Source of the DNA: an uncultured Clostridia bacterium
Lineage (GTDB): Bacteria; Bacillota; Clostridia; Oscillospirales; Ruminococcaceae
NCBI GenBank assembly: GCA_948465665.1
Contig: CAOJXI010000001.1
Location: forward strand, 1-44,535
Length of the DNA stretch: 44,535 nt
Direction: 5' to 3'
The position numbers and the translations under genes are program-made. Positions within the stretch are counted from its first letter, which is position 1. Each line of letters opens with the position of its first letter. Positions 649 to 44,130 of the stretch are shown here, in pieces. The notes beneath the pieces were generated by a model, which did not search any database, was not told where the DNA came from, and worked only from the letters and a program-made list of their open reading frames with translations.

Positions 649-677
649 AGAGTACCATAAAATACGGTTACTGTCAA
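649..677 (-). promoter_or_regulatory. Promoter candidate for the DUF2325 gene
   Basis: Minus strand reads TTGACA-N17-TACTCT, preceded by TGg (extended -10). Confidence 0.4.
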
Positions 678-755
678 CTAACCTTTTCATATTTCTACAT
701 AAAAAACAGCGGGAAGGGCTTCGCCTTCCCGCTGAAAATCAATAGCAGACACACA

Positions 756-1625
756 TTAATCCAAAGTAATCAGTTCATATTCCCTTGTACCAACACCCAA
801 GGCAGCAGCAGATTCCACAGTACGGACACCATTTCTGGACTCAATCCGTTCAATCAAATCCTTTTTTCCGGGATCATCAGACTGGTAAACCAAATCTAAA
901 CAAGCCTGATCCAGCGCCACAGGGTCTAATGAAGATAAAATCCCAATATCCGCCATTTTCGGGTCTTCTGCCACAGAGCAGCAGTCGCAGTCCACAGACA
1001 TATTGCGCATAATATTAATATAGGCAATATTCCCTTTAAAGAAATCCTTAATAGACAGGCAGGCGTCCGCCATAGAATCTAGGAAGGAGTCATGATCAGA
1101 AGACCAGATTTTCTTTTCATCGCCCGCTCCATGGATATAAGCTTTTCCATGGGAAGAAGCGATTCCAATCGAAATATTCTTCAGCGCCCCGCCGAATCCC
1201 CCCATGGGATGGCCTTTAAAGTGGCTCAAAACCAGCAGGGAATCATAGTTTTTCAGATGACTGCCTACATAGTTGGCTTTAATCTGCCTTCCGGTCGGAA
1301 TGGGAAGCTTTATTTCCCCTTCTTCATCCATAATGTCAACCTGCGCAATGCCAGTCCATCCGTGGAGTTTCATAGTGTTCCAATGATCTTTTGACGAAAA
1401 GCGTTTTCCCTCATAGGCAGTGTTACATTCTACAATAGTCCCTTTTACATAATCCAGAATAGGCTTCATGAAATCAGGACGGATAAAGTTCTGGTTTCCC
1501 ACTTCGCCGGAATGTACCTTTGCCGCAACTTTTCCAGGGAGTTCAATATTCAGCGCCTTGTACAGCTTAATAACCGCCTCAGGGGTAAGCTCTTTGGTAA
1601 AATAGACTTTTGCTTTTTCCGCCAT
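756..1625 (-). CDS. DUF362 domain-containing protein
   Basis: 289-aa ORF. It contains VYFTKE...HSGE.GNQNF...VECNTAYEG...LSHFKGHPMGGFGGALKN and a CDCC motif, which resemble DUF362 proteins as I remember them. GGAGAG RBS. Confidence 0.55.
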   Translation of the reverse strand: MAEKAKVYFTKELTPEAVIKLYKALNIELPGKVAAKVHSGEVGNQNFIRPDFMKPILDYVKGTIVECNTAYEGKRFSSKDHWNTMKLHGWTGIAQVDIMDEEGEIKLPIPTGRQIKANYVGSHLKNYDSLLVLSHFKGHPMGGFGGALKNISIGIASSHGKAYIHGAGDEKKIWSSDHDSFLDSMADACLSIKDFFKGNIAYINIMRNMSVDCDCCSVAEDPKMADIGILSSLDPVALDQACLDLVYQSDDPGKKDLIERIESRNGVRTVESAAALGVGTREYELITLD

Positions 1626-1840
1626 TTTGGTCTCTCCTTTTTATAGGTTAAAATGATTTGTTTTTATTATACTCCATAGAGTATACTCTAAGTCAAGAGG
1701 GGGATGAAAACGACTTTTTTAAGGAATATGTTACAGATTTATAATTCTGGTAATTTTCTTTGAAAATATTGAGTGAGCCTAAATCCTATGATAAAATTAA
1801 AAAATAAAATAACACATTGAAACTTGCAGGGGGACTTTTG

Positions 1841-2383
1841 ATGCTGGAACTGACTGAATATATCCATACACAAATGGAAAAGAAACCGTACAGGACAGAT
1901 ATTTCACTAAGCGGGATGCTGGAAGCATTTATTGGAAACTATTATGTATCTGGGGAAGGTTCAGACGATGATTTCCATTGGCTGACCATCTACTATGATC
2001 CTTCCATAGACACATATACCGAGGCGGTTGAAACAATTCCCTCCAATATAGTGGCATACGTTTCTTCCGATTACAGATGGGCTTTTGTATTAACGAGCCA
2101 TATTCATGAATTCAGAAAAGACACATCAGATTATGGAATATCCTATATTACTGTAAAATCTTTTTCGTGCGAACTGCTGCAATGCGCCCATATTGACCTT
2201 CTGCCATGTGAGTTTTCCAATATTCTTTGGATTGACGATGATTTTTTAAATGATGAAAACATCCCTTTTGATTTCAGCAGTTTTGCTTTAATTGATGATG
2301 GAGTCCATTATATAAACCCGAAACATTTTTCTGTTGTGCAGCTTATAACAATTATGGAAAGAAATCTGTTTGCTGGTCGGTAA
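1841..2383 (+). CDS. Hypothetical protein
   Basis: Long ORF. I prefer the ATG at 1841, which follows GGGGGA by 6 nt, over the TTG at 1817. No recognisable family. Confidence 0.45.
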   Translation: MLELTEYIHTQMEKKPYRTDISLSGMLEAFIGNYYVSGEGSDDDFHWLTIYYDPSIDTYTEAVETIPSNIVAYVSSDYRWAFVLTSHIHEFRKDTSDYGISYITVKSFSCELLQCAHIDLLPCEFSNILWIDDDFLNDENIPFDFSSFALIDDGVHYINPKHFSVVQLITIMERNLFAGR

Positions 2384-2492
2384 AGCAATTTTATCAACTG
2401 GCTTGTCATTTTATACGAAAAAGATAAATTCTTTTTGGAAGATGGGAAAATCATATAGGAAAATTCCTTTTTCTGCTGTACAATAATAATAT

Positions 2493-2964
2493 AACGTGAG
2501 TTCGGCGAAATAGTTCCTTAATTGCAAGGTTTTTGGTATTAGGTACGCCATCATCGCAAACCGTTGGTTTGCTGGATGGCTGCAAGAGGGAACTTGGAGG
2601 TTTTGTCCAACGTTGCGACGTTGGACGAAGAGGAAGAAGCCCGCCATAATGGGGCTGCCCCAACGAAGCTGGTTCCAATCCCAATCTTATCCCACCCCCG
2701 AAGCAATTCCAGCGGGCTTTTGATTTTGAATACTGACGAAGTGGTTAGTTATCAGTCTTTTAGGTAAGGTTTGCCTTGGCTTTAAGCCTGCTGGGGTATT
2801 TCGCGCCTGGCGGGTTCAGTTCAGCGCGCTGAACTGGCGACCAGGGGGCTTTTTAGGAGTGCAGCTCCGCTGCACAACCCCCTGGATCTGAAACCTTTTT
2901 AATCCGCCCCAGCTTGTACTCAACTTAGCTTACTCCCGCAAATGAGCTTTATCGAACTTACGTT
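2493..2964 (+). repeat. Mosaic structured repeat family, copy B (full length, candidate large structured RNA or non-autonomous element)
   Basis: The 5' AACGTGAGTTCG can pair with the 3' CGAACTTACGTT. There are many internal perfect hairpins, for example GTCCAACG...CGTTGGAC and CCAGGGGG...CCCCCTGG. The copy is collinear with copy D at 40031-40445. Confidence 0.75.
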
Positions 2965-3016
2965 AAACCACTAAAAAGGATCTGGGAAACCACATCCAAA
3001 GACAGGAGAGATAAAA

Positions 3017-5761
3017 ATGGGAACGAAGCTGCATTGGCTGGCTCCCCGGCAGCAGGCGCAATCCCCAGTGACATTTGGGCATCCCTGGCCAAAACAGATG
3101 TTAAAGCGCGGTCAGGTTACAGCCCTGCGGGATGAAAGTGGAAACTTCATCCCAGTACAGAGCAAAACAACCGCCTACTGGCCTGACGGTTCCATCAAAT
3201 GGACAGCCCATTCTGCGGTTTTGGATACCGTACCAGATAAGACCTATGAAATTGTTTTGTCAGATACCCCTGCGGCGGTTCCTCCAAAGGGAGGGGAAGT
3301 CCAGGCAAAACAGTTAGAGGATGGCTCTGTAACCGTAGAAAGCGGACTGTTGTTCTGCCATATCAAACCAAATACCCATGAGCTGATATCAAGCTTAATC
3401 CGCAAAAACGCCCAACCGGAACTTAGCTGGCGGCCCATGTCTGCAAAGCTAATTGGATACATAGAAAACAGGCAAAAGAAAGAGGGAATGGAGACAAATT
3501 CCCTTTATGAGCTGACAGGCGTTACCCATAAGGTGACATTAGAGGAATCCGGCCCTGTACGAGCAGTAGTCAAAATTGAGGGCTGCCATGAATACGATAT
3601 GAGGAAATCCCAAATTTTCCCCTTTACAGTCCGGCTTTACTTCTATGCAGGAAGCGATGAAATCCGCATGGTTCATAGCTTTGTCTTTAACGCCAATGAG
3701 CAGACAGATTTCTTAAAGGGCCTGGCGGTAGAGCTTACCCTGTCCGCTTCCGGCGAAGGCTATAACCGCCATGTAGGTTTTGCAGGGGAAAAGGGAATGT
3801 GGTATGAGGCCCTCCAGCCCATGTATGTAGGCGGGGGAATCTGGGGGAAAAAGAAAACTGCCCGCCCGGAATCCGGCGACGACGAACGCCTTGTACTGTA
3901 CCGCCGCCAGCAGATTGATGGCCAGTTTGTAACTCTGGACAGGAAGGAATACCCGGAATTTGTGGAGGTTGTTGAGGACAACGCCCTTTTCAACGATTTC
4001 CGCCTCAACCAGTCCTCTTGTGAAAACTATGTTATCACAAAACGTACCTTCCCGGACTGCGCCTATATCACCGCCGCACAGGGGACACGGAGCGGCGGAA
4101 CTGTATTTTTCGGAAGCCGGTCAGGAGTAGTTGCCGCCGGGATCCGGGATTTCTGGCAAAAATCCCCCATGGCCTTGGAAATCAAAAACGGGGCTTCAGA
4201 ACATCCTACAATGACGTTATGGCTGTGGAGCCGTTACGCCGAATCTATGGATTTCCGCGCCTATGACACCGTTTCACATAAGCACTCCTATGGCGGGGTA
4301 ATGAACGTCCCGGAGGGAATCGCCAATACCAATGAACTTTCCTTCAAGCTATTTGACTGTATGCCCGGAAAGGAAGCAATCCTGGACTTTGCCGCCGATG
4401 TACAAACGGATTCCCTTCTGGTGGCAAACCCGGAAGTCTACCAGGATACCGGCGTATTTGGAAGCTACTGGGCTGAACCTAAAGACCCCAAATACAAGGA
4501 TGAAGCCTATGAGAAAGCCCTTCTGGAATATGTCCGTTTCTATATCCGGGAGGTAGAACAGCGGAAATGGTACGGCTTTTGGGATTACGGTGACGTGATG
4601 CACACCTATGACCCGGTTCGCCATTGCTGGCGGTATGATGTGGGCGGATTTGCCTGGCACAATACCGAGCTGTGTAATACTTATGTCAACTGGTTGACCT
4701 TCCTGCGTACCGGAGACTATGAAATTTACCGCTTTGCCCGCGCCATGAGCCGCCACGCAAGCGAGGTGGACACCTACCATCTGGGCAAATTCGCCATGCT
4801 GGGAACCCGGCATAATGTCCGCCACTGGGGATGCGGGGCAAAGGAACCAAGGATTTCCACAGCGGGGCACCACCGTTTTTATTATTACCTGACCGCCGAC
4901 GAACGGATCGGGGACGTGATGGATTTTGTCAAGGATGCAGACAACCGCTGCGACTATAAAGACCCTATGGCGGGATTTTTCGGCAAACATTTGCCGGAAA
5001 ACCGCAATTACGCCCATGTCCGGGTTGGGCCGGACTGGACTTCCTATGCTGCCAACTGGCTCACCCGCTGGGAGCGTTTTGAGGATACAAAGTACCGGGA
5101 TAAGCTGCTTACTGGGATTGAGTCCCTGAAAAATGCCCCTCTGCGCCTTTCTTCCGGTTCTACCTTCCATTATGACCACCGGGATGGTATCCTCCATTAT
5201 ATGGGGGCTGAAAATCCGGCGGGACATACCCATTTAGGGGATGGGAACTATTCCCAGCATATGGTAGTCTGCTTTGGCGGACCGGAAACTTGGATGGAAT
5301 TGTGTGATCTTTTGGACGACCAGGAAATGAGGGAAATGCTCGCCCAATTCGGGGAACTGTACGCTATGGAGCCAGAGGAACGGTTCCAGGCCACCAATGG
5401 TTTGATCTCCGAGAAAAACGACAAAGCATGGGAAGGCCATGGGCCAATCTGGGGGCTGCGCACCTACGCATATGCGGCATGGCTCCACAACCGCCCGGAA
5501 CTGATGGAAAAGGCTGTCCAGAACCTGCGGTATGACGGAGACCTGGACGACGTGGTTCAGGACGGGGTACAGGGCCGTATGCTGTCTGACGGCAGCCTGC
5601 ATATAGTCCCAGTAGAAGACAAAGATGCTCCCCGGCCTATAGAAGAACTGGTTTATTCCAAGACCAACGGCATTTCCCAATGGAGCCTGAACTATATGGA
5701 AACCGTGCGGCTTCGGGAAATGATGGGTGAAAAGGAGCCAAAAGGAGGGAACGGACAATGA
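3017..5761 (+). CDS. PcRGLX/YetA-like protein (PL26-like putative exo-rhamnogalacturonan lyase family), paralog 1
   Basis: 914-aa ORF with GGAGAG RBS and no signal peptide. The N-terminal PVTFGHPWPK...YWPDGSIKWTAHSAV and C-terminal WYGFWDYGDVMH...GGFAWHNTE motifs match my recollection of the B. subtilis YetA / PcRGLX family. This is a family call from memory only. Confidence 0.5.
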   Translation: MGTKLHWLAPRQQAQSPVTFGHPWPKQMLKRGQVTALRDESGNFIPVQSKTTAYWPDGSIKWTAHSAVLDTVPDKTYEIVLSDTPAAVPPKGGEVQAKQLEDGSVTVESGLLFCHIKPNTHELISSLIRKNAQPELSWRPMSAKLIGYIENRQKKEGMETNSLYELTGVTHKVTLEESGPVRAVVKIEGCHEYDMRKSQIFPFTVRLYFYAGSDEIRMVHSFVFNANEQTDFLKGLAVELTLSASGEGYNRHVGFAGEKGMWYEALQPMYVGGGIWGKKKTARPESGDDERLVLYRRQQIDGQFVTLDRKEYPEFVEVVEDNALFNDFRLNQSSCENYVITKRTFPDCAYITAAQGTRSGGTVFFGSRSGVVAAGIRDFWQKSPMALEIKNGASEHPTMTLWLWSRYAESMDFRAYDTVSHKHSYGGVMNVPEGIANTNELSFKLFDCMPGKEAILDFAADVQTDSLLVANPEVYQDTGVFGSYWAEPKDPKYKDEAYEKALLEYVRFYIREVEQRKWYGFWDYGDVMHTYDPVRHCWRYDVGGFAWHNTELCNTYVNWLTFLRTGDYEIYRFARAMSRHASEVDTYHLGKFAMLGTRHNVRHWGCGAKEPRISTAGHHRFYYYLTADERIGDVMDFVKDADNRCDYKDPMAGFFGKHLPENRNYAHVRVGPDWTSYAANWLTRWERFEDTKYRDKLLTGIESLKNAPLRLSSGSTFHYDHRDGILHYMGAENPAGHTHLGDGNYSQHMVVCFGGPETWMELCDLLDDQEMREMLAQFGELYAMEPEERFQATNGLISEKNDKAWEGHGPIWGLRTYAYAAWLHNRPELMEKAVQNLRYDGDLDDVVQDGVQGRMLSDGSLHIVPVEDKDAPRPIEELVYSKTNGISQWSLNYMETVRLREMMGEKEPKGGNGQ

Positions 5762-8388
5762 AACGTGAAATGAAATGGCTTAAAGAGCGCAGCCAAAAAC
5801 AGGTTCCTGTGACCTTTGGGGCGCCGTGGGGCAGGGGTGAGCTTCCAAAGGGGTCATCCCTTGCACTGATTGGCGGAGACGGTAAAGAATTCCCCTGCCA
5901 GGTAAAGCCTACCGCTTTTTGGCCGGATGGTTCTATTAAATGGACAGCCCATTCCGCTGTATTGGATACCTCTCAGAATTATACGATTTCCCTTTCAGAC
6001 GGAAAACCCGCATCCCCGGAACAGCCCGTTTCAGCTTCCGAGGATGAAAACGGCGTGACAATTGAAAGCGGCCTGCTGTCCTGCCGGGTGGAATACGGGG
6101 ATAAACTGATTTCCTCCCTTGTACGGAAGAAAGACGGCTTCCGGCCCATGAGCGGGAAGCTGGTGGCACTGATTCAGAACGAGGAACTCCACGACGACTG
6201 CGAATTCCAGTTTATCCGCCGTTTTGAAGGCGTGACCCAGCAGATTACCCTGGAAGAATCCGGCCCGATGCGGGCGGTTGTCAAGGTGGAGGGGCTTCAC
6301 AGAAGCATCGTCCCGGCAGATTCTGGCAGTGAAATCTTCCCCTTCTCCCTGCGGCTGTATTTCTACGCGGGCAGCCAGGAGATTAAGATTGTCCACTCCT
6401 TTGTATTCGATATTGACGAACATATCGATTTCTTAAAGGGGCTGGCGCTGGAACTGACGATGGAAGCTTCAGGAGAACTCTATAACCGCCATGTTGGATT
6501 TGCAGGGGAAACCGGGATGTTCTATGAAGCGGTACAGCCTGCCTACTTTAAGAATAACTGGAAATACCCTGGAACGCCTGTGCCAGAGGAAACCGCCATT
6601 TATGAACGCCAGCAGCTTGAGGGGCAATTTATTGAAATCCCGGAAGAAGGGGATTTTTCGGAGGTTGTCCATGACAATGCCTGGTGGAACAATTTCCGCC
6701 TAAGCCAAGATTCCTGCGATCATTATATTATCTCCAAAAGCACCCATGAAGAATGTGCCCAAATTACTGCTTTCCAGGGGAACCGAAGCCAGGGGGCCAT
6801 ATTCTTTGGATGTGGGTCAGGAATCATTGCAGCAGCTATCAAAGACTGCTGGCAAAAATCCCCTATGGCGTTGGAAATTCAGAACGCGGCGGAAGATCAC
6901 CCGGTTATGACCCTATGGTTGTGGAGCCGTTACGCGGAACCGATGGATTTCCGCGCCTATGACCGGAAAAGTCATACTTATGCCTATGGCGGCATCAACA
7001 ACCACCCGGAAGGGATTGCCAATACCAATGAAATCTATTTGTCCCTTTTTGGGGAGATGCCCGGAAAACAAGCTGTAATAGATTTTGCCGGCGATGTGCA
7101 GAGTGAAACCCTGCTGGTGGCAGAGCCATCAGTTTACGCTGAAACCAAAGCCCTGGGAAGCTATTGGACTGGAACTGCTGATAAATACCGTGTCCCAGCC
7201 TATGAAAAGGCATTAAAGGAAATGCAGGAGTTTTACATCCATGAAATTAAACAGCGGAGATGGTACGGCTTTTGGGATTATGGCGATGTGATGCACTCTT
7301 ACGACCCTACCCGCCATTGCTGGCGGTACGATGTTGGGGGTTTTGCGTGGCATAATACAGAACTGTGCAACACTTATGCCAACTGGCTGTATTTCCTGCG
7401 GACAGGGGATTATGAGGTATACCGTTTTGCACGCGCCATGAGCCGCCATTGCAGCGAAGTTGACACCTACCACGCCGGAAAATATGCCATGCTGGGTTCA
7501 CGGCACAATGTACGGCATTGGGGCTGCGGGGCAAAGGAAGCCCGTATTTCCATGGCGGGACATTACCGGTTTTTCTACTATCTGACTGCCGATGAACGGA
7601 TCGGGGATATTATGGACTTTGTAAAAGATGCAGACTTTACCACTTTACAGAAAGATCCCATGGGAAGTTATTTCCCGCCCCATCCCCATTTCTCACATTG
7701 CAGAACCGGCCCGGACTGGACTTCATTCCTCAGCAACTGGATGACCCGCTGGGAACGCACTGAAGACCCTAAATATCGCGACAAACTTCTCAGGAGCATA
7801 GAATCCATTAAAAAGGCCCCTCTGGGGCTGTCCTCCGGGTCTACCTTCCATTATGAACCGGAAACTGGGGAAATGCACTATATGGGGGCTGACAATCCCG
7901 CTGGGCACAGGCATCTAGGGGACGGGAATTACCAGCAGCATATGGTAATCATGTTCGGGGGCGCGGAAATCTGGTTTGAACTCTGCGAACTGCTGCAAGA
8001 CCCGGAATTTGAAAAGATGGTAGCTGATTTTGGGGAATATTATGGCATGACCCCGGAGGAGCGGAACCAGAAATCCCATGGGCTGTTTAACCCTGACAAC
8101 GACCGCTGCTGGGGCGGGATTGGCGGCAGGATGACGGCTTTTGCCGGGTATTATCTGGACAATGACCGGTATATGGAAGCAGGAGAGGAGAGCATTACCT
8201 TCCCAGCCCAGAAAATGACGCAAGCCTTTGACGAGGAAGGGAATATGCAGTTATGGGATGTGCCGGAGAAGGATGCACCATATCCCATAAAAGAAGTGTG
8301 GAACCTGACTACAAATACTACTGCGCAGTGGAGCCTAGGATATATGGAAGTGTCTAAACTTCGGGAAATACAGGAGAATAAGAAATAA
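5758..8388 (+). CDS. PcRGLX/YetA-like protein, paralog 2
   Basis: 876-aa ORF, collinear with and clearly homologous to the upstream gene (same motifs). Its start overlaps the upstream stop (ATGA), suggesting translational coupling. Confidence 0.5.
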   Translation: MKREMKWLKERSQKQVPVTFGAPWGRGELPKGSSLALIGGDGKEFPCQVKPTAFWPDGSIKWTAHSAVLDTSQNYTISLSDGKPASPEQPVSASEDENGVTIESGLLSCRVEYGDKLISSLVRKKDGFRPMSGKLVALIQNEELHDDCEFQFIRRFEGVTQQITLEESGPMRAVVKVEGLHRSIVPADSGSEIFPFSLRLYFYAGSQEIKIVHSFVFDIDEHIDFLKGLALELTMEASGELYNRHVGFAGETGMFYEAVQPAYFKNNWKYPGTPVPEETAIYERQQLEGQFIEIPEEGDFSEVVHDNAWWNNFRLSQDSCDHYIISKSTHEECAQITAFQGNRSQGAIFFGCGSGIIAAAIKDCWQKSPMALEIQNAAEDHPVMTLWLWSRYAEPMDFRAYDRKSHTYAYGGINNHPEGIANTNEIYLSLFGEMPGKQAVIDFAGDVQSETLLVAEPSVYAETKALGSYWTGTADKYRVPAYEKALKEMQEFYIHEIKQRRWYGFWDYGDVMHSYDPTRHCWRYDVGGFAWHNTELCNTYANWLYFLRTGDYEVYRFARAMSRHCSEVDTYHAGKYAMLGSRHNVRHWGCGAKEARISMAGHYRFFYYLTADERIGDIMDFVKDADFTTLQKDPMGSYFPPHPHFSHCRTGPDWTSFLSNWMTRWERTEDPKYRDKLLRSIESIKKAPLGLSSGSTFHYEPETGEMHYMGADNPAGHRHLGDGNYQQHMVIMFGGAEIWFELCELLQDPEFEKMVADFGEYYGMTPEERNQKSHGLFNPDNDRCWGGIGGRMTAFAGYYLDNDRYMEAGEESITFPAQKMTQAFDEEGNMQLWDVPEKDAPYPIKEVWNLTTNTTAQWSLGYMEVSKLREIQENKK

Positions 8389-8411
8389 GCAGGGTATCTG
8401 TAATACATGAA

Positions 8412-8458
8412 AAGCGGTTAAAAAGACTTTATTAGAAGACCTTTTAACCGCTTCTTAT
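8412..8458. terminator. Bidirectional intrinsic terminator between convergent genes
   Basis: 12-bp stem AAGCGGTTAAAA/TTTTAACCGCTT followed by a T-rich tract. It sits between the stop at 8388 (+) and the stop at 8474 (-). Confidence 0.6.
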
Positions 8459-8473
8459 TGGATACGTTCATTT

Positions 8474-8746
8474 TCATTGTTCTTCCAAAAGATCATGTTC
8501 AGCCAGCCTAAGTTGTCCAGACTTATAGTCCGCCATCTTTTTCTCTAAATAATGAATATTATTCTCATCATAAAAAGGGTCTGGCTCTGTGGTGATTTCA
8601 AAGGGGATACGTCTTTCCTGCTCTAATTTTTTGCAGAAAATAGTTATCGCTGTTGTAAGGTTCATGCCAATCTTGGCGTATATTTCCTCAACATTTTTCT
8701 TGAGCTGTTCATCCATACGAAAATTTACGTTTACACTTTGTGCCAT
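8474..8746 (-). CDS. RelB/DinJ family antitoxin (orphan)
   Basis: MAQSVNVNFRMDEQLKKNVEEIYAKIGMNLTTAITIFCKK...IPFE is a typical ribbon-helix-helix RelB/DinJ N-terminus. AAGGAGG lies 8 nt upstream of the ATG at 8746. Confidence 0.7.
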   Translation of the reverse strand: MAQSVNVNFRMDEQLKKNVEEIYAKIGMNLTTAITIFCKKLEQERRIPFEITTEPDPFYDENNIHYLEKKMADYKSGQLRLAEHDLLEEQ

Positions 8747-9039
8747 ATGCGTTGCCTCCTTCATTGTTTCAAGTATAGCATTATCGTAAAGAAATAAAAA
8801 GTAATTTCTTTATATTTCTTTGCAAACCAGAATTTAATAAAATAGTCATATAACCAGAAGCTTTTTATTTTGGAAAAAGGCTGACTGGAAAACCGCCTGC
8901 CGCAGAATTTTGCATTTGCGGCAGGATTCTTTCTACCATAGGTTGAATTTCCACACAAAACTCTCCTATCCTGTTATTGTACTAAAATCCTGATTCTGTT
9001 ACGATAAAGTTATCCCATTTGATTCAGATGCTTCGTCCA

Positions 9040-9158
9040 ACGTCGTCAACGTTGGACAAAACCTCCAAGTTTCCTCTTACAGCCATTAAGCAAACCAACG
9101 GTTTGCCATGATAACGTACCTGATACCGAAAACCATAAAATTTCATTGAACTCACGTT
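9040..9158 (-). repeat. Mosaic structured repeat family, copy C (5' module only)
   Basis: The reverse complement begins AACGTGAGTTC and stays collinear with copies B and D up to GTTGGACGAAGC, where similarity stops. Confidence 0.7.
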
Positions 9159-9164
9159 ATATTA

Positions 9165-9207
9165 AAAGCGGTAAAAGGAATTCCAGGGGAATTTCCTCTA
9201 CCGCTTT
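9165..9207 (-). terminator. Intrinsic terminator of the XRE gene
   Basis: Hairpin AAAGCGGTA...TACCGCTTT with further inner pairing, followed by TTTT on the minus strand, 40 nt after the stop at 9247. Confidence 0.65.
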
Positions 9208-9246
9208 CATCATTTATAAAACAAATCAGAATGGGTAAACACTATC

Positions 9247-9576
9247 TCATGGTTCTTTACAAGCCTTTGCATACAAAGTAAGAATTTTTACGGCGTCTCC
9301 GCGTTGTTCGGAAGAAAGTCTGTGTAAAATATCAGCAATAGGATTTCCAGGCGAACACAGCAAATCCCCAAACAGAAGATAATCTACACTAATCGTCAAT
9401 GCCTGGCTTAATTTGATAAGAGTATCAAGGGAGACACTTTTTTCGCCCCGTTCTATCATTTGATAGTACCGCAGCGAAACATCAATCTGCTCTGATACAT
9501 ATTCCTGTGCAAAGCCAAGCTTATTTCGTTTGCTCCGCAGACGCTCACCAAATAAAAGCCGATCATTATGATTCAA
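9247..9576 (-). CDS. XRE family helix-turn-helix transcriptional regulator
   Basis: LRSKRNKLGFAQEYVSEQIDVSLRYYQMIERGEKSVSLDTLIKLSQAL is a classic HTH_3 motif. There is no ATG. I favour the TTG at 9576, 7 nt after AAGGAGG; the ORF could extend to the TTG at 9609. Confidence 0.75.
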   Translation of the reverse strand: MNHNDRLLFGERLRSKRNKLGFAQEYVSEQIDVSLRYYQMIERGEKSVSLDTLIKLSQALTISVDYLLFGDLLCSPGNPIADILHRLSSEQRGDAVKILTLYAKACKEP

Positions 9577-9640
9577 AGGCAATCCCTCCTTATAGTTCGC
9601 ATTGTACAATTCTTAATTGGTATTTTTTACGAATTATAAA

Positions 9641-9669
9641 TTGCTTATACGAACTTATAGATGTATAAT
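9641..9669 (+). promoter_or_regulatory. Promoter candidate reading toward 9992 (+), divergent from the XRE gene
   Basis: TTGCTT-N17-TATAAT. It is flanked by direct repeats TACGAATTATAAAT / TACGAACTTATAGAT that could be XRE operators. Confidence 0.45.
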
Positions 9670-9702
9670 AAGATTGAAAATATATCAGAAATATCGACAT
9701 TT

Positions 9703-9976
9703 AGAACCTGTATTCATAACCAAAGATGCTGGATGGGCAGGGATTTTTCCCGCCAGACAAGAGGATTTTCCGCAGTAATCCTTGATGGATTGTAAGAGCC
9801 TGTTTAGGATCTCAACGTGTGCGGATTAGCGAGCGGATTTTTAACGCAGTCTGGGCGGAAAATCTGCCGCTAAGACGTGCGCGGGGAGATTCTAAACAGG
9901 CTCTAAGGGAAAACGACGCGGTACGGCGGGAAAAAGACCGTTCAGACCGTGCAGGGCGGTTGTGAATACAGGTTCT
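9703..9976. mobile_element. MITE-like palindromic element M1 (long copy carrying nested inserts)
   Basis: Terminal inverted repeats AGAACCTGTATTCATAACC / GGTTGTGAATACAGGTTCT. A second copy at 25934-26096 is collinear except for a 100-bp insert. Confidence 0.75.
9805..9904. mobile_element. Nested palindromic element M2 (100-bp form) inside M1
   Basis: AGAGCCTGTTTAGGATCTCAACGTGTGCGG...GGGGAGATTCTAAACAGGCTCT. It is absent from the M1 copy at 25934-26096. A 50-bp form lies at 43123-43172. The extra ~48 bp (9835-9882) is itself an inverted repeat (GCGGATTTT...AAAATCTGCCGC). Confidence 0.7.
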
Positions 9977-9991
9977 TAAGGGGGGTTAAAA

Positions 9992-10483
9992 ATGGATCGA
10001 CTAAAATCTTCTAAGGAATCCTTTTCTCCACTTGTTTGTAGTATTTTTTCATTAGGCAAAGCTACTTGTGAATCTATTTCTGCATTTGAACAGACTATTA
10101 CATCTTTAGTGGAGGACTGCCTTGTACAAAATTTTTTTATTACATTAGAAAGTTGTTATCCTGAATACTGTGAAAAGCTGAAAAAACTTCAGTCTACATA
10201 TGATAAAAACATTAAAATTACAGTCATTACCCATTATCCAGAAAATATAGATCAAACTAACTCAAATTTTTTTGATGCTTTCCTTTTTGGTGATAATATT
10301 GAGAATATAGATACAAAAGCAAAAAATTTTAGGACACAAAATTTAAGGGTAATAAAGGCGTTAATTGACCGGTCTGACTTTTGTATTTGCAATTTAGATG
10401 TAACAATTTTTTCTGATAAAATTAGAAAATATGTGGGCCAGAAACCAAAGGTAACACTGCTGGATTTAAGCGTGTCACTATAA
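9992..10483 (+). CDS. Hypothetical protein, possibly a degenerate SLOG/DUF1273 (YoqJ-like) homolog
   Basis: 163-aa ORF in AT-rich DNA with GGGGGG RBS. The C-terminal RVIKALIDRSDFCICNLD resembles the ...RNRYMVDxSDxLIAVYD motif of DUF1273, but the N-terminal glycine motifs are not evident. Confidence 0.35.
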   Translation: MDRLKSSKESFSPLVCSIFSLGKATCESISAFEQTITSLVEDCLVQNFFITLESCYPEYCEKLKKLQSTYDKNIKITVITHYPENIDQTNSNFFDAFLFGDNIENIDTKAKNFRTQNLRVIKALIDRSDFCICNLDVTIFSDKIRKYVGQKPKVTLLDLSVSL

Positions 10484-10670
10484 AAAAGCAGGCAGTTACA
10501 CAAACAGAACCAAAATACCAGGGAACCTCTGCCGGGGCATCCCAGAGGGATTGGAGTATTTTTATTACATCAGTCAAAGGGGTTTTATGAGGATTCCTTT
10601 GACCGTCTTTTTCTTACAGCTTTGGGAGAAAACAGAGAATTTATAAAGAAAAAAATGCTGTACCTATAAA

Positions 10671-10712
10671 TGCAGCCAGGAGGAACTTTTAAGCAAAGTT
10701 CTCCTGGCTGCA
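10671..10712. terminator. Long perfect hairpin, terminator downstream of the giant surface-protein gene
   Basis: TGCAGCCAGGAGGAACTTT-loop-AAAGTTCTCCTGGCTGCA (19-bp stem), 33 nt after the stop at 10745. T-tracts lie on both sides. Confidence 0.6.
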
Positions 10713-10744
10713 TTTTACAAATCCCTTTCGGCTGTTTCAAGAGG

Positions 10745-13700
10745 TTATTTCCTGCGCAGGAACATTTTAAGCGCAAACACTACACCAAGGCAAACGGCCA
10801 ATACTCCAGCCAACACAAGGGGAACAAAAGATTTTTTCTCCTGTATTTCGACATCGCCGCTTGCAGCCGGGAGAGAATCCTGATTCTGGACAGGATTTTC
10901 TATAGTGGAGCTAACCGTTTCAGGGGAGGGAACGCCCTCCTCTTTGGCAGTCATATTTTTATCAGTCAGCGTTATATTTGCCTCATCCGGGGCAGAAACA
11001 GTCCAAATATTCCCGGAAGCCAGATCAGAAAGCCCAATCTGCGAGATTTCAGAATCCATCCCCTGGCCCCGAGAGAATTTTTCTTCCAATAGGGAAAGAG
11101 GGAAAAACGCCCTGTCCGGTTCAGGGGAAAGGGAATCCCCGGCAGCAATGAAAATAGGTTCCCCGCCATTCCACTGGATTAAAATGGAAGCCTGCTGGTT
11201 TTCTTCCAAAACATCCATAAAGGAAACAGGCATCCTGTCATAACCTTTTGCATTAATCCGAACCAAATCGCCTTCGGAGGAACTCTGGACGACAGCGGCA
11301 GCAGAATCCCAGAAATCCGCCTGGGCAGAGGGCAAATCCAGATCGTCAGCCTTTTGGGGTGCGGAATCAATGAAAGCTGTCTGTCCATTGCCCCCTCCAA
11401 CCAAGACATGGATTTTTGATAGGGAATCAAGTTTTAAAAGGATGTTCTGCCCATCTTTCTGGAAGGGGATGGGAACCCAGTCAGATGCTTTTTCCCCTTT
11501 TGCTTGATGGATTTCCCCAACAATATCAGCTGAGATATTATCAGGCAAGGTAAACTGAAGGAAAAAGGCCCCGATTGATTCCTGCTCCAGCGGTTCCTTA
11601 TTTTTAACCAAGCTCGGCTTTAACTCCATAGCGGAACCAGCGGTAGGCTGGAGCGGGGTAAGGGTAAGGGTGACAGAGTCGTTTATTTCAGCACTGGCAG
11701 CAGTCCCAATCCCCCAGGCAGAGGCTGAGGTTGGGGCGGGAAGGCCGGGCACAGATTCTATGGAAGTTTCCAGGGTAATATTAAGCCCGTTCTGCTGGAA
11801 CTGATCCAGGAGCTTAGCCTGTTCCAAAGTCAGGGAGCCTTTCTCACTGCCCTGAACCTTGGAAACCCCCTGGATAATGGCTTGTAAGAATTCCCGATCT
11901 TCATCTTCTAAGGTTTGGCTACTGTCACCCAGCAGTTGGCCAATATCCCCGGCAATTTCCATAATATCGGACATAGAATTTTTAGATGGGGAACCGCTGT
12001 TAATTTCGAGCAGCAAACAGGATACCGGGACAGAGGTACCTTCATACCGCAGCTCCAATAAGCCAACGCCATCCCCCATAGGAGTAGCATAAGCATCTTC
12101 AACACGGACAAGGCTGTTCCGGGAGAACCAGTAGAAATTATCAGCGGTGGGCGTTTGCCCAGGGAGGGACGCACCAAGCACCGAAACAGATATCCGAGGC
12201 AGGCGCTGCGGTTCCCCAAGGGTGTCCAGCTTGAGAAGCTGAACTTCGCCGCCATCCACATTGGCTGAGACAGTGGTGACAGGAACGCGGATTTCTTCTG
12301 TCACATCAGAATAATTCGGATCGGAAGATGTGTAATGGAAGGAAAAAGTCTGGTATGCAGATTGGTTGCTCCCCTGTAGCTTTTCAGAAGGGTCTCCTGT
12401 AAAGCTCCATCCTTTGGGAAGTTTTACATCCTCCATTGCCGGGGTACGGTTTGTAATAATATGGAGGTTGTCCATCAGGGCGCGGGTAGACTGGTACGAG
12501 GGGTTGGAAGAACCTTCCCCAGCGGTAATTTCGCCTACTGCTTGGAACGTATCATCCAAAGTATAATTAGAGGTCAGCCGCGACAAATTCAGGACAAGGC
12601 TTCCTTTGGCGCTTTTAGAAGAACCTGTTTGAGCATTGTCAAAGGATACAGAGGAAACATCAAAATCCCTGCCGAAAACAAGTTCTTCATCATTTTTAAG
12701 CCCATCCAAAGTAATAGAGGAAACCGACCCGCTTGTCAAACCGTCATAGGGCTTGGAGGGAAGATCTGCAGAAGCTACTGTCAAAGGTGCAGGCTTTATA
12801 TACAAGGGAGCAGAAACTGAACCCGCCTGTTCCGAATCCTGGTAAACAGCCCTGACCATATAAACACCTGCTTTTTCAGGTGAATCGGAAGCGTTTTCTA
12901 TAACAGAGCCATCCAGCGCAGTACCGCTGTAAGTATAGGAAAAAGCGGTGAGATTCAGGGAAATTCCCGGTTCAGCCTTGACAACAGGCTCCTCTGGAGC
13001 GTCCCCGTATACCCGGCTTTGGGAGGGAAGGGTTAAAAACGGGCTGATATCTTTCTGTCCCACTACGGAAACAGTCAGTGAAACTTTATTGCTGCCAGAA
13101 GCCCATTCCGGCAGTTCCACCTCCCCGGTAAATGTAACATCTCCCTCATAAGTGCCAAAATTATCCGGGAGGGCAGTGCGTTCCCATTGAATTTCAAGTT
13201 CTTCCTCATTTCCCGAAGAATAAACTGCCTTAGCGGTTTCAGGAAGGGAAATACCCGCTAAAGAATATCCTTCTGCTTCAACAGGAAGCAGGATATCCCC
13301 GCCAGCGCTGACAGCGGCAGCGGCAGGATGCACAACAACCCGAACCGTACAGGATACTTCATCATCATCCAGAGAGGTTTTTGCAGAAAACAGGAATTCG
13401 CCGCCCTGCGGCTCCCAATCGTCAGAATCTTCTGAAAGGGTGTATTGGACTGAAATTTCCTCCCAGGAACCATTATTATAGGAAGCGCGGACAGGGGCGT
13501 TTTGTTCCAGGTAATCCTGAATTGTATTTACGCTTTCATTCGCATCATCGTCTGCGGAAAGGGAAACAGAGTCAACAATAGGGGCTAGGGAAACCAGTTC
13601 CCTTTCCTGGAAATCTACAATCCCCTCTATTTCACGGTCACTTTCGGAAACAGTATAACGCCAAATCCAGGTATCCCCTTCACGGAAAGCAGCAGAGGCT

Positions 13701-16700
13701 TCCCCGCTGACCCCTGAAACAGAAAGGACAGGCATGTATTCACCGCTTGCTGACGCCCTCCATTCCAGAGTATCCCCAGGTTCGGCGGCAGAAAGGGGAG
13801 AACCGTTGACAAGTACCATGACAGTTCCATCCCTTTCCCCTGGGCCATCCCCCTGGGCTGTAACAGATGTAAGCGTCCTTACCCTCGCCTGGCTTGTTTC
13901 TGAACAGAAGCGTCCCTCATCGGCTGCAATGCGGGCATAAAGGACATATTCAGTTCCCGCATCCAGATTTCGGAAACTGCCTGATTCCCTCCAGCGCACC
14001 TCATCCCAATCAATGTCCTCTGTATCCTCGGCAGCGGATAAAAAGAATTCCTGGTCGTCCTCGTAGACAGCCATAATATTGTACAAACCTGCTGCTGTTT
14101 TAATAGAGGGCGGGTCTGGACGCGCCGGGATGGAAAAGGGTTCCCCATCGCTGGCAGGAGTGTCCCGGTCGCCTTTGGCGCGCATATACAAAACACCATC
14201 TGAACTTCCCGCTGCAGGAATGTATTCAGAAATGGAATCGCCATCCTCAATAATCGTTTTAAAGGCATCATCTGGGCTGACTTCATATCTTTGACCGTCA
14301 TATGTAATGGTTTCATCCTCAAAGCTGATAGCTGCTTCATCCCCCTCCGGCAGAGAAAACAAGGTGGAGAATGTACTTGGCTGGCTTTCCCCCGATGAAA
14401 AGTTTTGCTCTGTTGCAGAGACGCAGGTTTCAAAGGTATAGGAAGAAGAAGGCTCCAAGCCCTTAAAGACAGGGCTTCTCTGCCAGTTCCCGCCATTGCA
14501 GCGGTAAAGGATGTTTTCACCAGCCTCATCCAAAGTGATGGAATCCTTGCCCTTGTCCTTCAGGGCAGGGGCAGGAGGCGAATCGGGCCTTGCCGGAATG
14601 TGGAGGCCGCCTGCGGTACTGGCAAACCGGTCTTCCCCTGCGGCAACCCGATAGGACAGCGTAACCTGTTCCCCATTCTCCGGTATGCGGCCGGAAATGG
14701 ATACAGGGCCATCAGCTTCCTGGTAGTTCTCCCCATCAAAGGAATACAGAACCCCCTCCTCCAATGTAACTGTTTCCGCATAATAATCTATTTCCGCAGC
14801 CCCGGAATTATCCGGCCTTGGCGGGATGGAAACCTCAATGGGATCGCTGGCAGGCGTATCGCCGTCGGCTTTGGCGCGAAGGTACAGAGTGCGGGAGGAT
14901 TCTCCAGCTTCCGGGATATACGCGCTGATGGATCCACTGGAAATATCCCCGTCCTCTGAAAAGTCAGGGCTGGCATTTAACTCATATTGGGAAGAAAACT
15001 GAATGGTTTCCTGCTGGTAGTCTATTTCGGTCAGCACCCCTTCGGGCAGGGGCGGCTTTGTCACAAAGGTCAGCCGGGCAGGATTTGAAAGGTTTCCTGC
15101 CTTATCCTTAACCACTAAGGAAACAGTGTATTCCTCGCTGGAATCCAAATCCATAAGCGGGAAGCTGGCGGTTTCATCAATTTTGCCCAGGGAAATCCCC
15201 TCAGCAACTTCTTCTGCATCCGGCCCGTCTTCAGAGGTATCCCCGGTTTCCAGCAAATAATAAAGTTCCCCAGCCTCCCCGCTTTCAAGGGAAATAACAG
15301 CGGCATTTTCGGTAATATCCGCAACTGTTTCCCGACGGACAGAGGGTGCAGTCCGGTCAATCTGTATATGGAGGGGGTCAGAACTTGTCTCGCTGCGGCT
15401 GCCGCACAAGGAAACAGCGCGGAACCAGAAATAAGCGTCCATTTCCCGGTAAACATTAAAATCACTTTGGACGGTATCCCATTCCACATCTTTGGAGGGT
15501 TTTTCTGCTGTCTCAGTGACGCAATATTCATAACTTCCCAGCTGTTCCTCCGGGAGCCCGCCGGAAAGCTTAACAGCTACCTGTTCCCGGCTCCAGCCAT
15601 TAGCGGCGCTTATTGCCTTAACAGGAGTAAAAGCCGGGCTGTAAAGATATACCTGTATGGATTGTTCCTCGCTTTCAGCCCCAGCCCCGCTAACTGCCTT
15701 AAAGGTATAGGAAACCTGCTGGGTGGCACTGGCAGGATGGATCATTAACTGCCTGCCTGTCAGGGGAGTCCATTGCGTTCCATCGTCAATACTATAAAAA
15801 TAGGTAATATCAGAGGGAATTTCCCCTTCATCCTCTGGGGTAATGGTAAAGGTAACAGGCTGTTCCGAAGGTTCCCCTTCCTCATAAGGCTCCCCATCCA
15901 TAACAGCAGATACGGTAAACTCTGGTTTAAGGCTATCCAGTTTTACCGTATAGGGATCGCTTTCGCCCTCGCTGCCCACATTGGTTACAATCCGCACTAA
16001 GATAGAGTCCGTATAGTCCCCATCCTCATCAATCGTAAAACGGTTTTCACTGTCAGATTCCCATTCAATAGGATCGCTCCAGTGCTTTCCACCGTCAACA
16101 GAATAAGAAAATTCCTTCACGCCGCTTTCCGGCATGGGGGAGGGGGCTTTCACTGTAAGGATAACTTCCTCTGACGCCCAGCCTGACGGCACACCCTCCA
16201 GGGAAGGCTTTCCCGCTCCGGCTTTGTCAATTTTCACATCATATTCCTGGGAAGGGAGGCTTTCCAATCCGCTTTCCGATATTGCCTTGAATTCCACCTT
16301 CCGGGTACTGGATGCAGTATAAACATCCCCCTCAATAGGCACCCATTCCCCTTCGTTTATCCGAACATAATAAGTTACAGGGGAGGCAGGGGAATTTTCA
16401 CAGGAAAGGGTAAAGGTGACATCTTCATCTGTCCATTCCTCTTTATAATCTGTTTTAACCCGGCTAAGCTCTGGGTTCTGGGTATCCAGCTTATAAGAAA
16501 ATGCTGGTGCCTCTGTGGATACTCCATCCCTATCTGTGCCAGTAGCCATTAAAATAGAAAGTTCCTTTTCCCCGTCTTCTGTAATCGTTACAGAGTCGTC
16601 CCATGACCTTCCGCCATTGGCGCTGATAAACTGGAACCGTCCAGCGGAATCATTGGGCGTAAGCGTAATTTCATCGGTATACCAGCCGTTCTCCCCTTCC

Positions 16701-20144: not shown

Positions 20145-20269
20145 TGCCTTTTAAGCAAAAACTTCATCTTTTTGAAATGATTTTGTCTCCAATTTTTTAC
20201 TAATTCCGCTTTTAATTTTATTTAAAATTTAACTTGACAGATTAGGCGTTATTTATTACAATAAAAATA

Positions 20270-20359
20270 GAAAATGACGCTGCCCGGTAAACGGTCAGCC
20301 CCTAAAAGTTGGAGAAATAATCGCCGAACTTTGCGAGGGCCCGGCGATTATTTCTTTTT
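20270..20359 (+). ncRNA. Candidate antisense (antitoxin) small RNA, unit 1
   Basis: TTGACA(20234-20239)-N17-TACAAT(20257-20262). About 90 nt downstream is a 12-bp stem AAATAATCGCCG/CGGCGATTATTT followed by TTTCTTTTTGTT. The RNA would be fully complementary to the 3' end and 3' UTR of the toxin transcript. Confidence 0.5.
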
Positions 20360-20428
20360 GTTCTGTATAAACAGGTTACAAATACCAATAATTACTAAGC
20401 AAAACTGTAACAGTTCTGACAAAGTCAT
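20348..20428 (-). CDS. 26-aa hydrophobic lysine-tailed peptide, type I toxin candidate (holin-like toxin/BsrG/TxpA-like), unit 1
   Basis: MTLSELLQFCLVIIGICNLFIQNKKK. GGGGGG SD lies 7 nt upstream of the ATG. The stop codon is embedded in the terminator stem. Confidence 0.65.
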   Translation of the reverse strand: MTLSELLQFCLVIIGICNLFIQNKKK

Positions 20429-20551
20429 TAGGCATCCCCCCTTTCGCTATGTACGATCAGGGGGCAAGAAACGTTTTGGAAACTTCCCGTTCCCAAAGCG
20501 GCCCCCTGATGGGGGCTAACCGCCTACCGTTTATGGCAGCGTCACAGCTTT

Positions 20552-20580
20552 ATATTACCATATTTTTCGACATTTAGCAA
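20552..20580 (-). promoter_or_regulatory. Toxin-mRNA promoter, unit 1 (equivalents at 20910-20938 and 21271-21299)
   Basis: Minus strand reads TTGCTA-N17-TAATAT with TGg extended -10. The predicted transcript starts GUGACGCUGCC near 20545. This promoter is back-to-back with the next unit's antisense promoter. Confidence 0.5.
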
Positions 20581-20627
20581 CAATATTTTTCTTGACTGTT
20601 CTAGCGTTATCTATTATAATAAAGATA

Positions 20628-20717
20628 CAAAATGACGCTGCCCGGTAAACGGTCAGCCCCTAAAAGTTGGAGAAATAATCGCCGAACTTTGCGAGGGCCC
20701 GGCGATTATTTCTTTTT
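20628..20717 (+). ncRNA. Candidate antisense small RNA, unit 2
   Basis: TTGACT(20592-20597)-N17-TATAAT(20615-20620), with the same terminator. Confidence 0.5.
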
Positions 20718-20786
20718 GTTCTGTATAAACAGGTTACAAATACCAATAATTACTAAGCAAAACTGTAACAGTTCTGACAAAGTCAT
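20706..20786 (-). CDS. Type I toxin candidate peptide, unit 2
   Basis: Peptide and SD identical to unit 1. Confidence 0.65.
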   Translation of the reverse strand: MTLSELLQFCLVIIGICNLFIQNKKK

Positions 20787-20985
20787 TAGGCATCCCCCCT
20801 TTCGCTATGTACGATCAGGGGGCAAGAAACGTTTTGGAAACTTCCCGTTCCCAAAGCGGCCCCCTGATGGGGGCTAACCGCCTACCGTTTATGGCAGCGT
20901 CACAGCTTTATATTACCATATTTTTCGACATTTAGCAACAATATTTTCCTTGACAGTTCTAACATTATCTATTATAATAAAGACA

Positions 20986-21077
20986 GAAAATGACGCTGCC
21001 CGGTAAACGGTCAGCCCCTAAAGGTCTTTGAAACAATCGCCGATCTTTTGTGAGGAGTCCGGCGATTATTTCTTTTT
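20986..21077 (+). ncRNA. Candidate antisense small RNA, unit 3
   Basis: TTGACA(20950-20955)-N17-TATAAT(20973-20978), with a terminator whose loop has diverged but whose stem is conserved. Confidence 0.5.
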
Positions 21078-21146
21078 GTTCTGTATAAACAGGTTACAAA
21101 TACCGATGATAACTAAGCAAAACTGTAACAGTTCTGACAGAGTCAT
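21066..21146 (-). CDS. Type I toxin candidate peptide, unit 3
   Basis: The peptide is identical despite at least 4 synonymous nucleotide differences from unit 1 (ttg>ctg, gta>gtt, att>atc twice). Confidence 0.65.
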   Translation of the reverse strand: MTLSELLQFCLVIIGICNLFIQNKKK

Positions 21147-21346
21147 TAGGCATCCCCCCTTTCGCTATGTACGATCAGGGGGCAAGAAACATTCTGGAAA
21201 CTTTCTGTTCCCAAAGTGGCCCCCTGATGGGGGCTAACCGCCTACCGTTTATGGCAGCGTCACAGCTTTTATATTACCATATTTTTCGACATTTAGCAAC
21301 AATATTTTCCTTGACTGTTCTAACATTATCTATTATAATAAAGATA

Positions 21347-21436
21347 GAAAATGACGCTGCCCGGTAAACGGTCAGCCCCTAAAGGTCTTTGAAATAATCG
21401 CCGAACTTTCGAGGGGCCCGGCGATTATTTCTTTTT
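21347..21436 (+). ncRNA. Candidate antisense small RNA, unit 4
   Basis: TTGACT(21311-21316)-N17-TATAAT(21334-21339), with the terminator. Confidence 0.45.
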
Positions 21437-21505
21437 GTTCTGTATAAACAGGTTACAAACGCCAATAATAACTAAACAAAACTGTAACAGTTCTGACAGA
21501 GTCAT
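21425..21505 (-). CDS. Type I toxin candidate peptide, unit 4 (leader truncated)
   Basis: MTLSELLQFCLVIIGVCNLFIQNKKK. The SD is AGGGGGA. The upstream structured leader and promoter seen in units 1-3 are replaced by unrelated AT-rich sequence. Confidence 0.5.
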   Translation of the reverse strand: MTLSELLQFCLVIIGVCNLFIQNKKK

Positions 21506-21595
21506 TAGACATCCCCCTTGGACTTTTCTTAGAAAAAGGATACAGTTATTGAAAATGTAAGGTTTTTGAATGATAACCATAAAACAAGTATAATA

Positions 21596-21636
21596 AATGA
21601 CAGGTCAGTGAAAAAATTCACACTGCCTGTCATTTA
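21596..21636 (-). terminator. Terminator after the 176-aa gene
   Basis: 10-bp stem AAATGACAGG/CCTGTCATTT with further inner pairing, 6 nt after the stop at 21642. Confidence 0.55.
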
Positions 21637-26096: not shown

Positions 26097-26114
26097 CAAT
26101 AAAGCGCCATATAT

Positions 26115-40445: not shown

Positions 40446-40446
40446 A

Positions 40447-44110: not shown

Positions 44111-44130
44111 TTCATATTTCCTGTTTTTCG

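Follow-up and report, generated by a model that had tools for sequence, protein, structure and literature searches.

What is the hairpin-dense repeat that recurs at this locus: a large structured RNA, or a mobile element assembled from palindromic modules? The original prediction offered both alternatives for a sequence seen four times in the 44,535-nt stretch of DNA analysed here (the window). We determined the limits of the repeat, its distribution in related genomes, the pairing of its interior and the state of one of its sites in a close relative. With a probability of roughly 0.7, we read it as a non-autonomous, non-coding, MITE-like transposable element. It is lineage-restricted, occurring in a few mouse-gut Oscillospiraceae, and represents a new family of the MITE/BOX/bcr1 kind, not a new class of large RNA.

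All four copies first proposed are present, with slightly shifted limits, as determined with a repeat finder and profile searches (E = 1e-18 to 1e-179). The window holds two full copies (B and D) and two partial ones (A and C), full length being about 420-474 nt. An nhmmer profile built from the two long copies matched four places: copy B at 2494-2962 (+, E = 2e-132), copy D at 40032-40447 (+, E = 2e-134), copy C at 9155-9030 (-, E = 3e-25), and copy A in two pieces, 261-159 and 150-55 (-). Copy B measures 474 nt (2493-2966, +), its limits being set by an empty site, with a 1-nt (A) ambiguity at the boundary. Copy D measures about 420 nt (40030-40449, +). According to the profile search, copy C consists of the 5' 130 nt only (9029-9159, -), from the terminal inverted repeat to GACGAAGC. 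Copy A (55-263, -; profile search and alignment) is degenerate, with an internal deletion and a missing 3' end. Its 5' module is fused to the 3' domain, a hairpin (GAGTTCAGC AGA GCTGAACTC) replaces the P6 domain, the inner P3/P4 hairpin is missing, and the copy ends after GCGACCAAG.

The two full copies sit in different settings. Copy B is a discrete insertion in the leader/promoter region of a PL26-type operon, and the spacing originally given, about 50 nt upstream of a PL26-like gene pair in the sense orientation, agrees with a gap of 50-53 nt to the start codon. The two tandem genes that follow encode products with the three PcRGLX domains of exo-rhamnogalacturonan lyases, family PL26. These genes (3017-8388) are tandem paralogues of 914 and 876 aa with about 70-79% DNA identity over long stretches, and the tandem pair is also kept in relatives. 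Another assembly of the same strain (L013:2447-2997, compared with window 2440-3020) has copy B with identical flanks; its middle of about 190 nt carries about 25 substitutions and is missing the 27-nt inserted hairpin, a difference due either to gene conversion, with another copy as donor, or to an assembly path that became chimeric within the repeat at low coverage. Copy D is antisense to both neighbours. It lies between the stop codon of a small Cys-rich gene, which comes after feoB in its operon, and the operon's terminator-like hairpin (about 39975-40012) beyond the element's far side. By sequence reading and the ORF list, this stop codon (40447-40449) overlaps the TA at the right end of copy D. 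Such a layout would be expected if the element had inserted behind the stop codon and ahead of the terminator.

The ends of the element are inverted repeats. In copy B these are 13 nt long and match at 12 of 13 bases (one mismatch), with the left end TAACGTGAGTTCG at 2492-2504 (+) and the right end TAACGTAAGTTCG on the minus strand at 2953-2965. The left end TAACGTGAGTTCG is also found on copies C and D, in L004, L007, L009 and L010, and on a short element in L001; in all, the terminal inverted repeat ends occur on at least ten other copies and on this 198-nt relative. The original prediction had taken the complementary ends for a closing helix. The complementarity stands, but terminal inverted repeats describe it better than an RNA helix does: mismatches in the terminal helix number about eight G·T and seven A·C, with no strand bias, unlike the internal helices, and this fits DNA inverted repeats rather than a helix of RNA. 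The ends are the least conserved part of the element (65-85%), and several copies lack them.

Non-autonomous transposons typically form families that are defined by their ends and have variable interiors. The 198-nt element at L001:1617-1814 has the ends of the main family (TAACGTGAATTCG ... GAACTCACGTTA) and an interior with only GGTAC...ATGGCTGCAA in common with it. At L006:5751, the left end of the family is followed by other sequence, and a member of a second repeat family splits that sequence. Nearly all copies have TA at both ends (TA-ACGTGAG...CTTACGT-TA), a pattern that suggests, from sequence, an enzyme of the IS630/Tc1-mariner type. The left flanks differ among copies (ATAT, ATTT, AATT, GTGT, ACAT, CGAT). 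Direct repeats of 7-8 nt flank two of six copies (D and L2b), barely above a control with mismatched flanks in which 7 nt occurred in 1 of 30 pairs, and these duplications were set aside as probably chance.

We next turn to the empty site. A relative was located through its 93%-identical PL26 protein in two independent Logan assemblies, L028 and L029; it has about 88% nucleotide identity to the window and is largely syntenic with positions 668-14404. Upstream of its PL26 gene the site reads ...AATAATAT|ACCACTAAAAAGG... (also ...GTACAATAATAATAT|ACCACTAAAAAGG...), or in a longer reading ...GCGGTACAATAATAATAT|ACCACTAAAAAGGAT..., and the filled site of the window reads ...GCTGTACAATAATAATAT, then the element (AACGTGAG ... 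CGAACTTACGTTAA), then ACCACTAAAAAGGAT.... The difference between filled and empty site is exactly 474 nt, window 2493-2966 with one ambiguous A, and its boundaries fall at the inverted ends. The empty site has a single TA at the junction, and the window has two extra A on the right. As it stands, this junction carries a duplication of 1 nt at most; to accommodate a TA duplication, a further 2-nt difference (AA) has to be assumed.

Across 22.7 kb of largely syntenic DNA the relative is free of the element, compared with three copies in the window. At the position of copy C, L028 has a 1.7-kb segment with methyltransferase and SAICAR synthase genes (L028:15443-17320, versus window 8456-9159 with a RelB antitoxin gene and the truncated copy). 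Since copy C is broken inside the element at GACGAAGC and the relative differs there, we regard it as a remnant at a rearrangement point. Searches for further empty sites around the DUF362 and ECF sigma factor genes recognised none, synteny being broken there.

The PL26 site also bears on whether the element could be a cis-regulatory leader, such as a riboswitch or antitermination RNA, for polysaccharide-degradation genes. Copy B, lying in sense just before the PL26-type pair and containing a GC-rich helix followed by a T run, has the layout of such a leader. The orthologous PL26 operon of the close relative, however, lacks the element, other copies stand beside unrelated genes (RelB, Glu/Gln-tRNA synthetase, SecDF, phosphofructokinase, DUF362, ECF sigma factor), and some are antisense to both neighbours. 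A leader function of this kind is thus already contradicted and retains almost no probability.

Occurrence beyond the window was determined by an exact-pattern scan of one genome per GTDB species. Matches came from only two genomes, MGBC165041 and iMGMC-155, both uncultured mouse-gut Oscillospiraceae MAGs. The 8-kb loci around these matches held more copies, and the total stands at 11 full-length and about ten partial copies with 75-90% mutual identity; together, the window and about 190 kb of retrieved sequence contain more than 20 complete or fragmentary copies. Within one genome the copies are 77-90% identical. A third, more distant species, with 80-85% nucleotide identity in shared genes, has a diverged copy directly upstream of a DUF362 gene. 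In several assemblies, contigs begin or end within the element, as would be anticipated for a repeat present in many copies. No similar sequence was found in viral contigs (IMG/VR, pattern scans) or in PLSDB plasmids and GenBank phages (BLAST), and the single match to the 3' pattern in a JGI metagenome scan, inside a high-GC transporter gene, was rejected as chance. A literature search found no description of the repeat family.

All copies are intergenic and lie at unrelated sites in either orientation. Their neighbours are ordinary housekeeping genes and include those for Glu/Gln-tRNA synthetase, SecDF, phosphofructokinase, sigma factors (ECF sigma factors among them), AraC regulators, DUF362 proteins and RelB, as well as the feoB operon, and no downstream gene is common to the copies, as had been observed for those in the window. 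Orientation matches that of the upstream gene in eight or nine copies. The four exceptions are L2a, which is divergent from the gene upstream of it and faces the one downstream, and D, L4a and L6, each antisense to its two neighbours. Some copies are found between convergent genes and others in 3' untranslated regions. Modules also occur on their own, the 5' module in copy C and the 3' module at L002:584-661, L010:18-107 and L010:7505-7609. The element is modular in the manner of BOX and BIME repeats, with modules present in different combinations and hairpins gained or lost as units. Together, the empty site, the dispersed positions in both orientations, the fragments and the short relative with shared ends bear out the MITE-like alternative of the original prediction.

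In the mechanism that we favour, the element would insert at T|A junctions in AT-rich intergenic DNA within a small clade of mouse-gut Oscillospiraceae, presumably moved by a transposase encoded elsewhere in the genome and probably acting in trans as a TA-target DDE enzyme. The earlier statement that no transposase lies nearby holds: there is none, nor a reverse transcriptase or TnpB/IscB gene, in the window ORFs scanned. Likewise, no transposase was found among ten ORFs scanned next to the MGBC165041 copies or beside any match to the terminal inverted repeat in about 190 kb of fetched loci. With no candidate among these ORFs and loci, the partner enzyme is hypothetical.

The interior of the element is a mosaic of separable hairpin modules whose pairing is maintained by compensatory changes. 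P4, P5, P12 and P13 are local hairpins, and P6 and P11 are long-range helices. In the coordinates of copy B, all on the plus strand, the P3/P4 hairpin (GCCATC..GCAAACC GTT GGTTTGC..GATGGC) spans 2547-2580, is paired in 94-99% of cells with two covarying pairs, and is flanked by the most conserved blocks, TTAGGTACGCCATC and GATGGCTG. P5 (GTCCAACGT TGCG ACGTTGGAC, with a UGCG loop; 2605-2626) is 100% paired and has three pairs changed on both sides. This is the helix in which compensatory differences between copies were first noticed, and the comparison of GTCCAACGT/ACGTTGGAC in B with GTCCAACTC/GAGTTGGAC in D was confirmed; further copies carry GTCAAACTC/GAGTTTGAC and GTCCAACGC/GCGTTGGAC. In the P6 region (2637-2727), AAGCCCGC at 2637-2644 pairs with GCGGGCTT at 2712-2719. 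Across copies this helix encloses 70-90 nt, including a C-rich conserved stretch (2675-2699 in B), and TTTTGATTTT then follows. P6 has undergone two independent compensatory changes, G-C to U-A in L2b and G-C to A-U in L021/L023.

The 3' domain (2790-2913) comprises P11, P12 and P13. P11 joins GCTGGGG (2790-2796) to CCCCAGC (2907-2913) and varies only by C to T, which keeps G·U pairs on the sense strand. The P12 hairpin (2802-2842) has two covarying pairs and carries an inserted hairpin specific to copy B, and the P13 hairpin (2843-2883) has three to four and carries an inserted hairpin that L10 also has. The domain also contains the conserved blocks GGGGTATTTCGCG and AAACCTTTTT (2891-2900). 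Over the whole element, the best-conserved internal blocks (95-99%) are TTAGGTACGCCATC, GATGGCTG, GGAAGAAGCCC, GGGGTATTTCGCG, GCGACCA and AAACCTTTTT.

Pairing statistics were obtained from the 11 full copies with a hand-curated structure. Standard pairs fill 91.6% of cells, against 37-48% when partners are slid by 1-3 columns, and 14 pairs are changed on both sides, a number reached by none of 500 shuffles. The internal helices hold 44 G·T and 11 A·C cells, at about 20 versus 10 positions. Folding energy is lower for the sense strand in 10 of 11 copies, with Z-scores similar for both strands; for both strands of the copies, B and D among them, the predicted folds are much more stable than those of shuffled sequence (z = -4.4 to -8.9). 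In L8 and L6, 29-30 G·U pairs form in the sense strand versus five in the antisense strand. This strand bias is suggestive only, as it represents few independent events and a strand-biased C-to-T mutation could produce the same. P5 and P12 are capped by UGCG loops on a C-G closing pair. Loops of the UNCG type are especially stable in RNA, and we take their presence as no more than a hint of an RNA function.

A separate feature was observed in P5. Copies in L010 and L004 (e.g. L010:4540-4971) belong to a P5 subfamily, GTCAAAC/GTTTGAC, in which the 3' arm makes TTGACA, with CATAAT 17 nt on. The resulting TTGACA-N17-CATAAT, an internal promoter close to the consensus and directed towards the C-rich domain, is limited to some copies. 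We considered it as the element's own promoter in MGBC165041 copies and rejected it; it is not general, and a transcript from it would exclude the 5' arm of P6.

These properties of the interior raise the question of whether the copies are paralogous, independently expressed genes for a large structured RNA of about 430 nt, dispersed in the genome and closed by a helix of their ends. Internal blocks that stay 95-99% conserved while stems covary, the long-range P6 with its two compensatory changes, the two C-G-closed UGCG loops, the sense-strand excess of G·U with the lower sense folding energy, and a -10-like TAnnAT that often occurs just before the 5' end would all suit such genes. Against this, the element has neither a conserved sigma-70 promoter (-35/-10) upstream nor an intrinsic terminator after it, and for this reason it does not qualify as an independent RNA gene. 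Promoters and terminators of textbook quality do occur elsewhere in the window, in the tandem units at 20224-21600. In front of the PL26 gene, copy B takes up the space that a promoter would need; one or both ends, or entire domains, are missing from many copies; and the strand bias of the internal helices is not seen in the terminal helix. Precise presence and absence at the PL26 site, and a 198-nt relative with nothing but the ends in common, are likewise transposon-like. We therefore consider a set of RNA genes unlikely. The structured-RNA alternative of the original prediction accordingly divides in two: an independent RNA gene finds no promoter or terminator to go with it, and folding as RNA when co-transcribed is probable.

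The repeat had been matched to none of the RNA families named in the original prediction, and at Rfam 15 gathering thresholds the whole window gave 0 matches; an Rfam match had been named beforehand as grounds for refutation, and this search was negative. In a permissive Rfam mode, copy B produced chance-level matches only (E >= 0.5, far below thresholds). ROOL, GOLLD, OLE, raiA, HEARO/omega RNA, group I and II introns, T-box and every other Rfam 15 model were rejected, none reaching its gathering threshold, and a tRNA origin was rejected as ARAGORN found none. A group I or II intron or an IStron, considered in view of the element's precise, duplication-free insertion, was rejected for want of an Rfam intron signal and canonical boundary nucleotides. 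On the coding side, no reading frame is kept across copies, in agreement with the original prediction. In several copies one frame has no stop across the strongly conserved 5' half but is then shifted by 1-nt indels; a small peptide was rejected, there being no conserved ORF in the element.

The covariation may instead have arisen in DNA. The repeat could be a purely DNA-level palindrome, shaped by template switching or recognised as a single-stranded hairpin by an HUH-type enzyme (REP/RAYT-like or IS200/IS605-derived), with no role as RNA. Most covarying helices (P4, P5, P12, P13) are indeed short local palindromes, and template switching can carry a change in one arm over to its partner. As with HUH transposons, no clear duplication is seen at the one empty site, and the gain in folding over shuffled sequence is about equal for the two strands. 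IS200/IS605 elements, however, have a fixed target tetranucleotide and no terminal inverted repeats, and the present element has variable left flanks and inverted ends. P6, whose arms lie about 70-90 nt apart, is kept by compensatory changes, which goes beyond local palindrome mechanics, and no Y1/HUH gene was found in the window ORFs or in the ten copy-adjacent ORFs scanned. We judge a purely DNA-level palindrome to be quite unlikely. A derivative of IS200/IS605 in the form of a PATE or omega RNA carrier was rejected on the same flanks and ends; in addition, TnpA and TnpB are absent from the window ORFs scanned, and there is no Rfam match to IS605 or HEARO.

Returning to the MITE-like element, its interior most likely matters as folded RNA during read-through from neighbouring genes, given compensatory pairing and an excess of G·U over A·C on the sense strand. 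Such a role when co-transcribed is plausible from the sequence. In the PL26 leader (copy B) or in 3' untranslated regions, the element could serve as a stabiliser, a processing site or an attenuator.

One pattern runs counter to a decaying MITE: the ends are least conserved and some interior blocks are 95-99% conserved. As copies within a genome are only 77-90% identical, either their spread is old or the interior is selected for something else. With interior conservation exceeding that of the ends at this level of identity, the cause is either a selected function or gene conversion that keeps the interior uniform. There is a small chance that the conserved interior is a functional structured RNA of about 430 nt that spreads in a transposon shell. 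Such an RNA may be a portable leader or UTR module for common control of operons (e.g. PL26), or it may be required by the mobilising enzyme. The conservation of the interior over the ends, the compensatory changes in P6 and the sense-strand excess of G·U fit this possibility.

As a MITE-like element, the present family behaves like BOX, bcr1, Correia and BIME repeats, exceeds most such elements in size and mosaicism, and has no apparent sequence relationship to any described family. In Streptococcus pneumoniae, BOX elements are modular, 67-637 bp long and transcribed with their neighbours, and their movement is attributed to an IS element acting in trans (PMC3184786). BOX and the present element are both non-coding, intergenic and multi-copy, with optional modules, overlapping sizes, complementary ends and stable predicted folds. 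They differ in that BOX has a Streptococcus host and a repeated boxB unit, whereas the present element belongs to Oscillospiraceae and is built from unique hairpins. Judged by host lineage and sequence composition, homology to boxA/B/C or to the REP consensus is unlikely.

The bcr1 repeats of the Bacillus cereus group are mobile and transcribed, and compensatory changes maintain their fold at the RNA level (PMC3184786). Like the present element, they are non-autonomous mobile repeats whose placement is not conserved between relatives. However, bcr1 is about 155 bp long with clear 5-bp direct repeats, whereas the present element is three times larger and mosaic, with at most a possible TA duplication. 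Correia/NEMIS elements of Neisseria and other TA-target MITEs resemble it in their inverted ends, the TA at both junctions and their intergenic positions near gene starts or ends, and Correia-type MITEs can become part of mRNAs by co-transcription and may include promoter-like sequences (cf. PMC3184786). Correia elements are 100-155 bp long and bind IHF; the present element is far longer, has an interior more conserved than its ends, and needs the extra 2-nt difference at its empty site to yield a TA duplication. REP/BIME repeats of enterobacteria and pseudomonads share a mosaic of palindromic units, an extragenic location and a frequent position near 3' ends or between convergent genes, and BIMEs influence mRNA stability and take part in recombination (PMC3184786). 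The REP unit measures 20-40 bp and is linked to RAYT transposases, whereas the present element combines inverted ends and a defined full-length form with extended conserved stretches that are non-palindromic.

For annotation, hairpin-dense intergenic blocks of 0.1-0.5 kb in murine Oscillospiraceae MAGs are mobile repeats that break assemblies and mark rearrangement points, and they should be masked before RNA-gene searches in these genomes. One copy in the leader of a rhamnogalacturonan-lyase operon and another between a stop codon and a terminator provide a natural experiment on inserted structured sequence versus expression in an uncultured gut lineage. The unusually well-conserved interior, with its modest chance of being a functional RNA, is the one part worth follow-up.

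The window also contains other repeats. The tandem array at 20224-21600 consists of four units of about 359 nt, and one inverted, diverged unit lies at 44130-44460. Each unit has a near-perfect promoter (TTGACA/TTGACT, 17 nt, TACAAT/TATAAT) for a short RNA ending in a hairpin and a T run, and on the opposite strand it encodes a hydrophobic peptide of 26-27 aa with a KKK tail. The peptide is MTLSELLQFCLVIIGICNLFIQNKKK at 20348-20428, 20706-20786 and 21066-21146, with a variant within 21425-21580, and MTTSEVLQLCLVIIGICNLFIQIYKKK at 44269-44352. The units look like type I toxin-antitoxin modules, judging by this arrangement, and have no real Rfam match.

A second, unrelated MITE-like family with inverted ends of about 21 nt (TTAGAACCTGTATTCAyAACC) occurs at 9705-9985 and 25934-26099 in the window and at L006:5165-5245 and 5848-6013; in L006 it is inserted next to the fragment with the left end of the studied element. 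A small palindromic unit, AGAGCCTGTTTAGGATCTC...GAGATTCTAAACAGGCTCT, was found at 9795-9904, nested in this second family, and at 43123-43172, where it stands alone between genes as a 50-nt perfect hairpin. Finally, the ORF at 34721-35287 contains three tandem 81-nt repeats (35030-35272; 68-79% identity to the first unit), which thus form a coding repeat of 27 residues.
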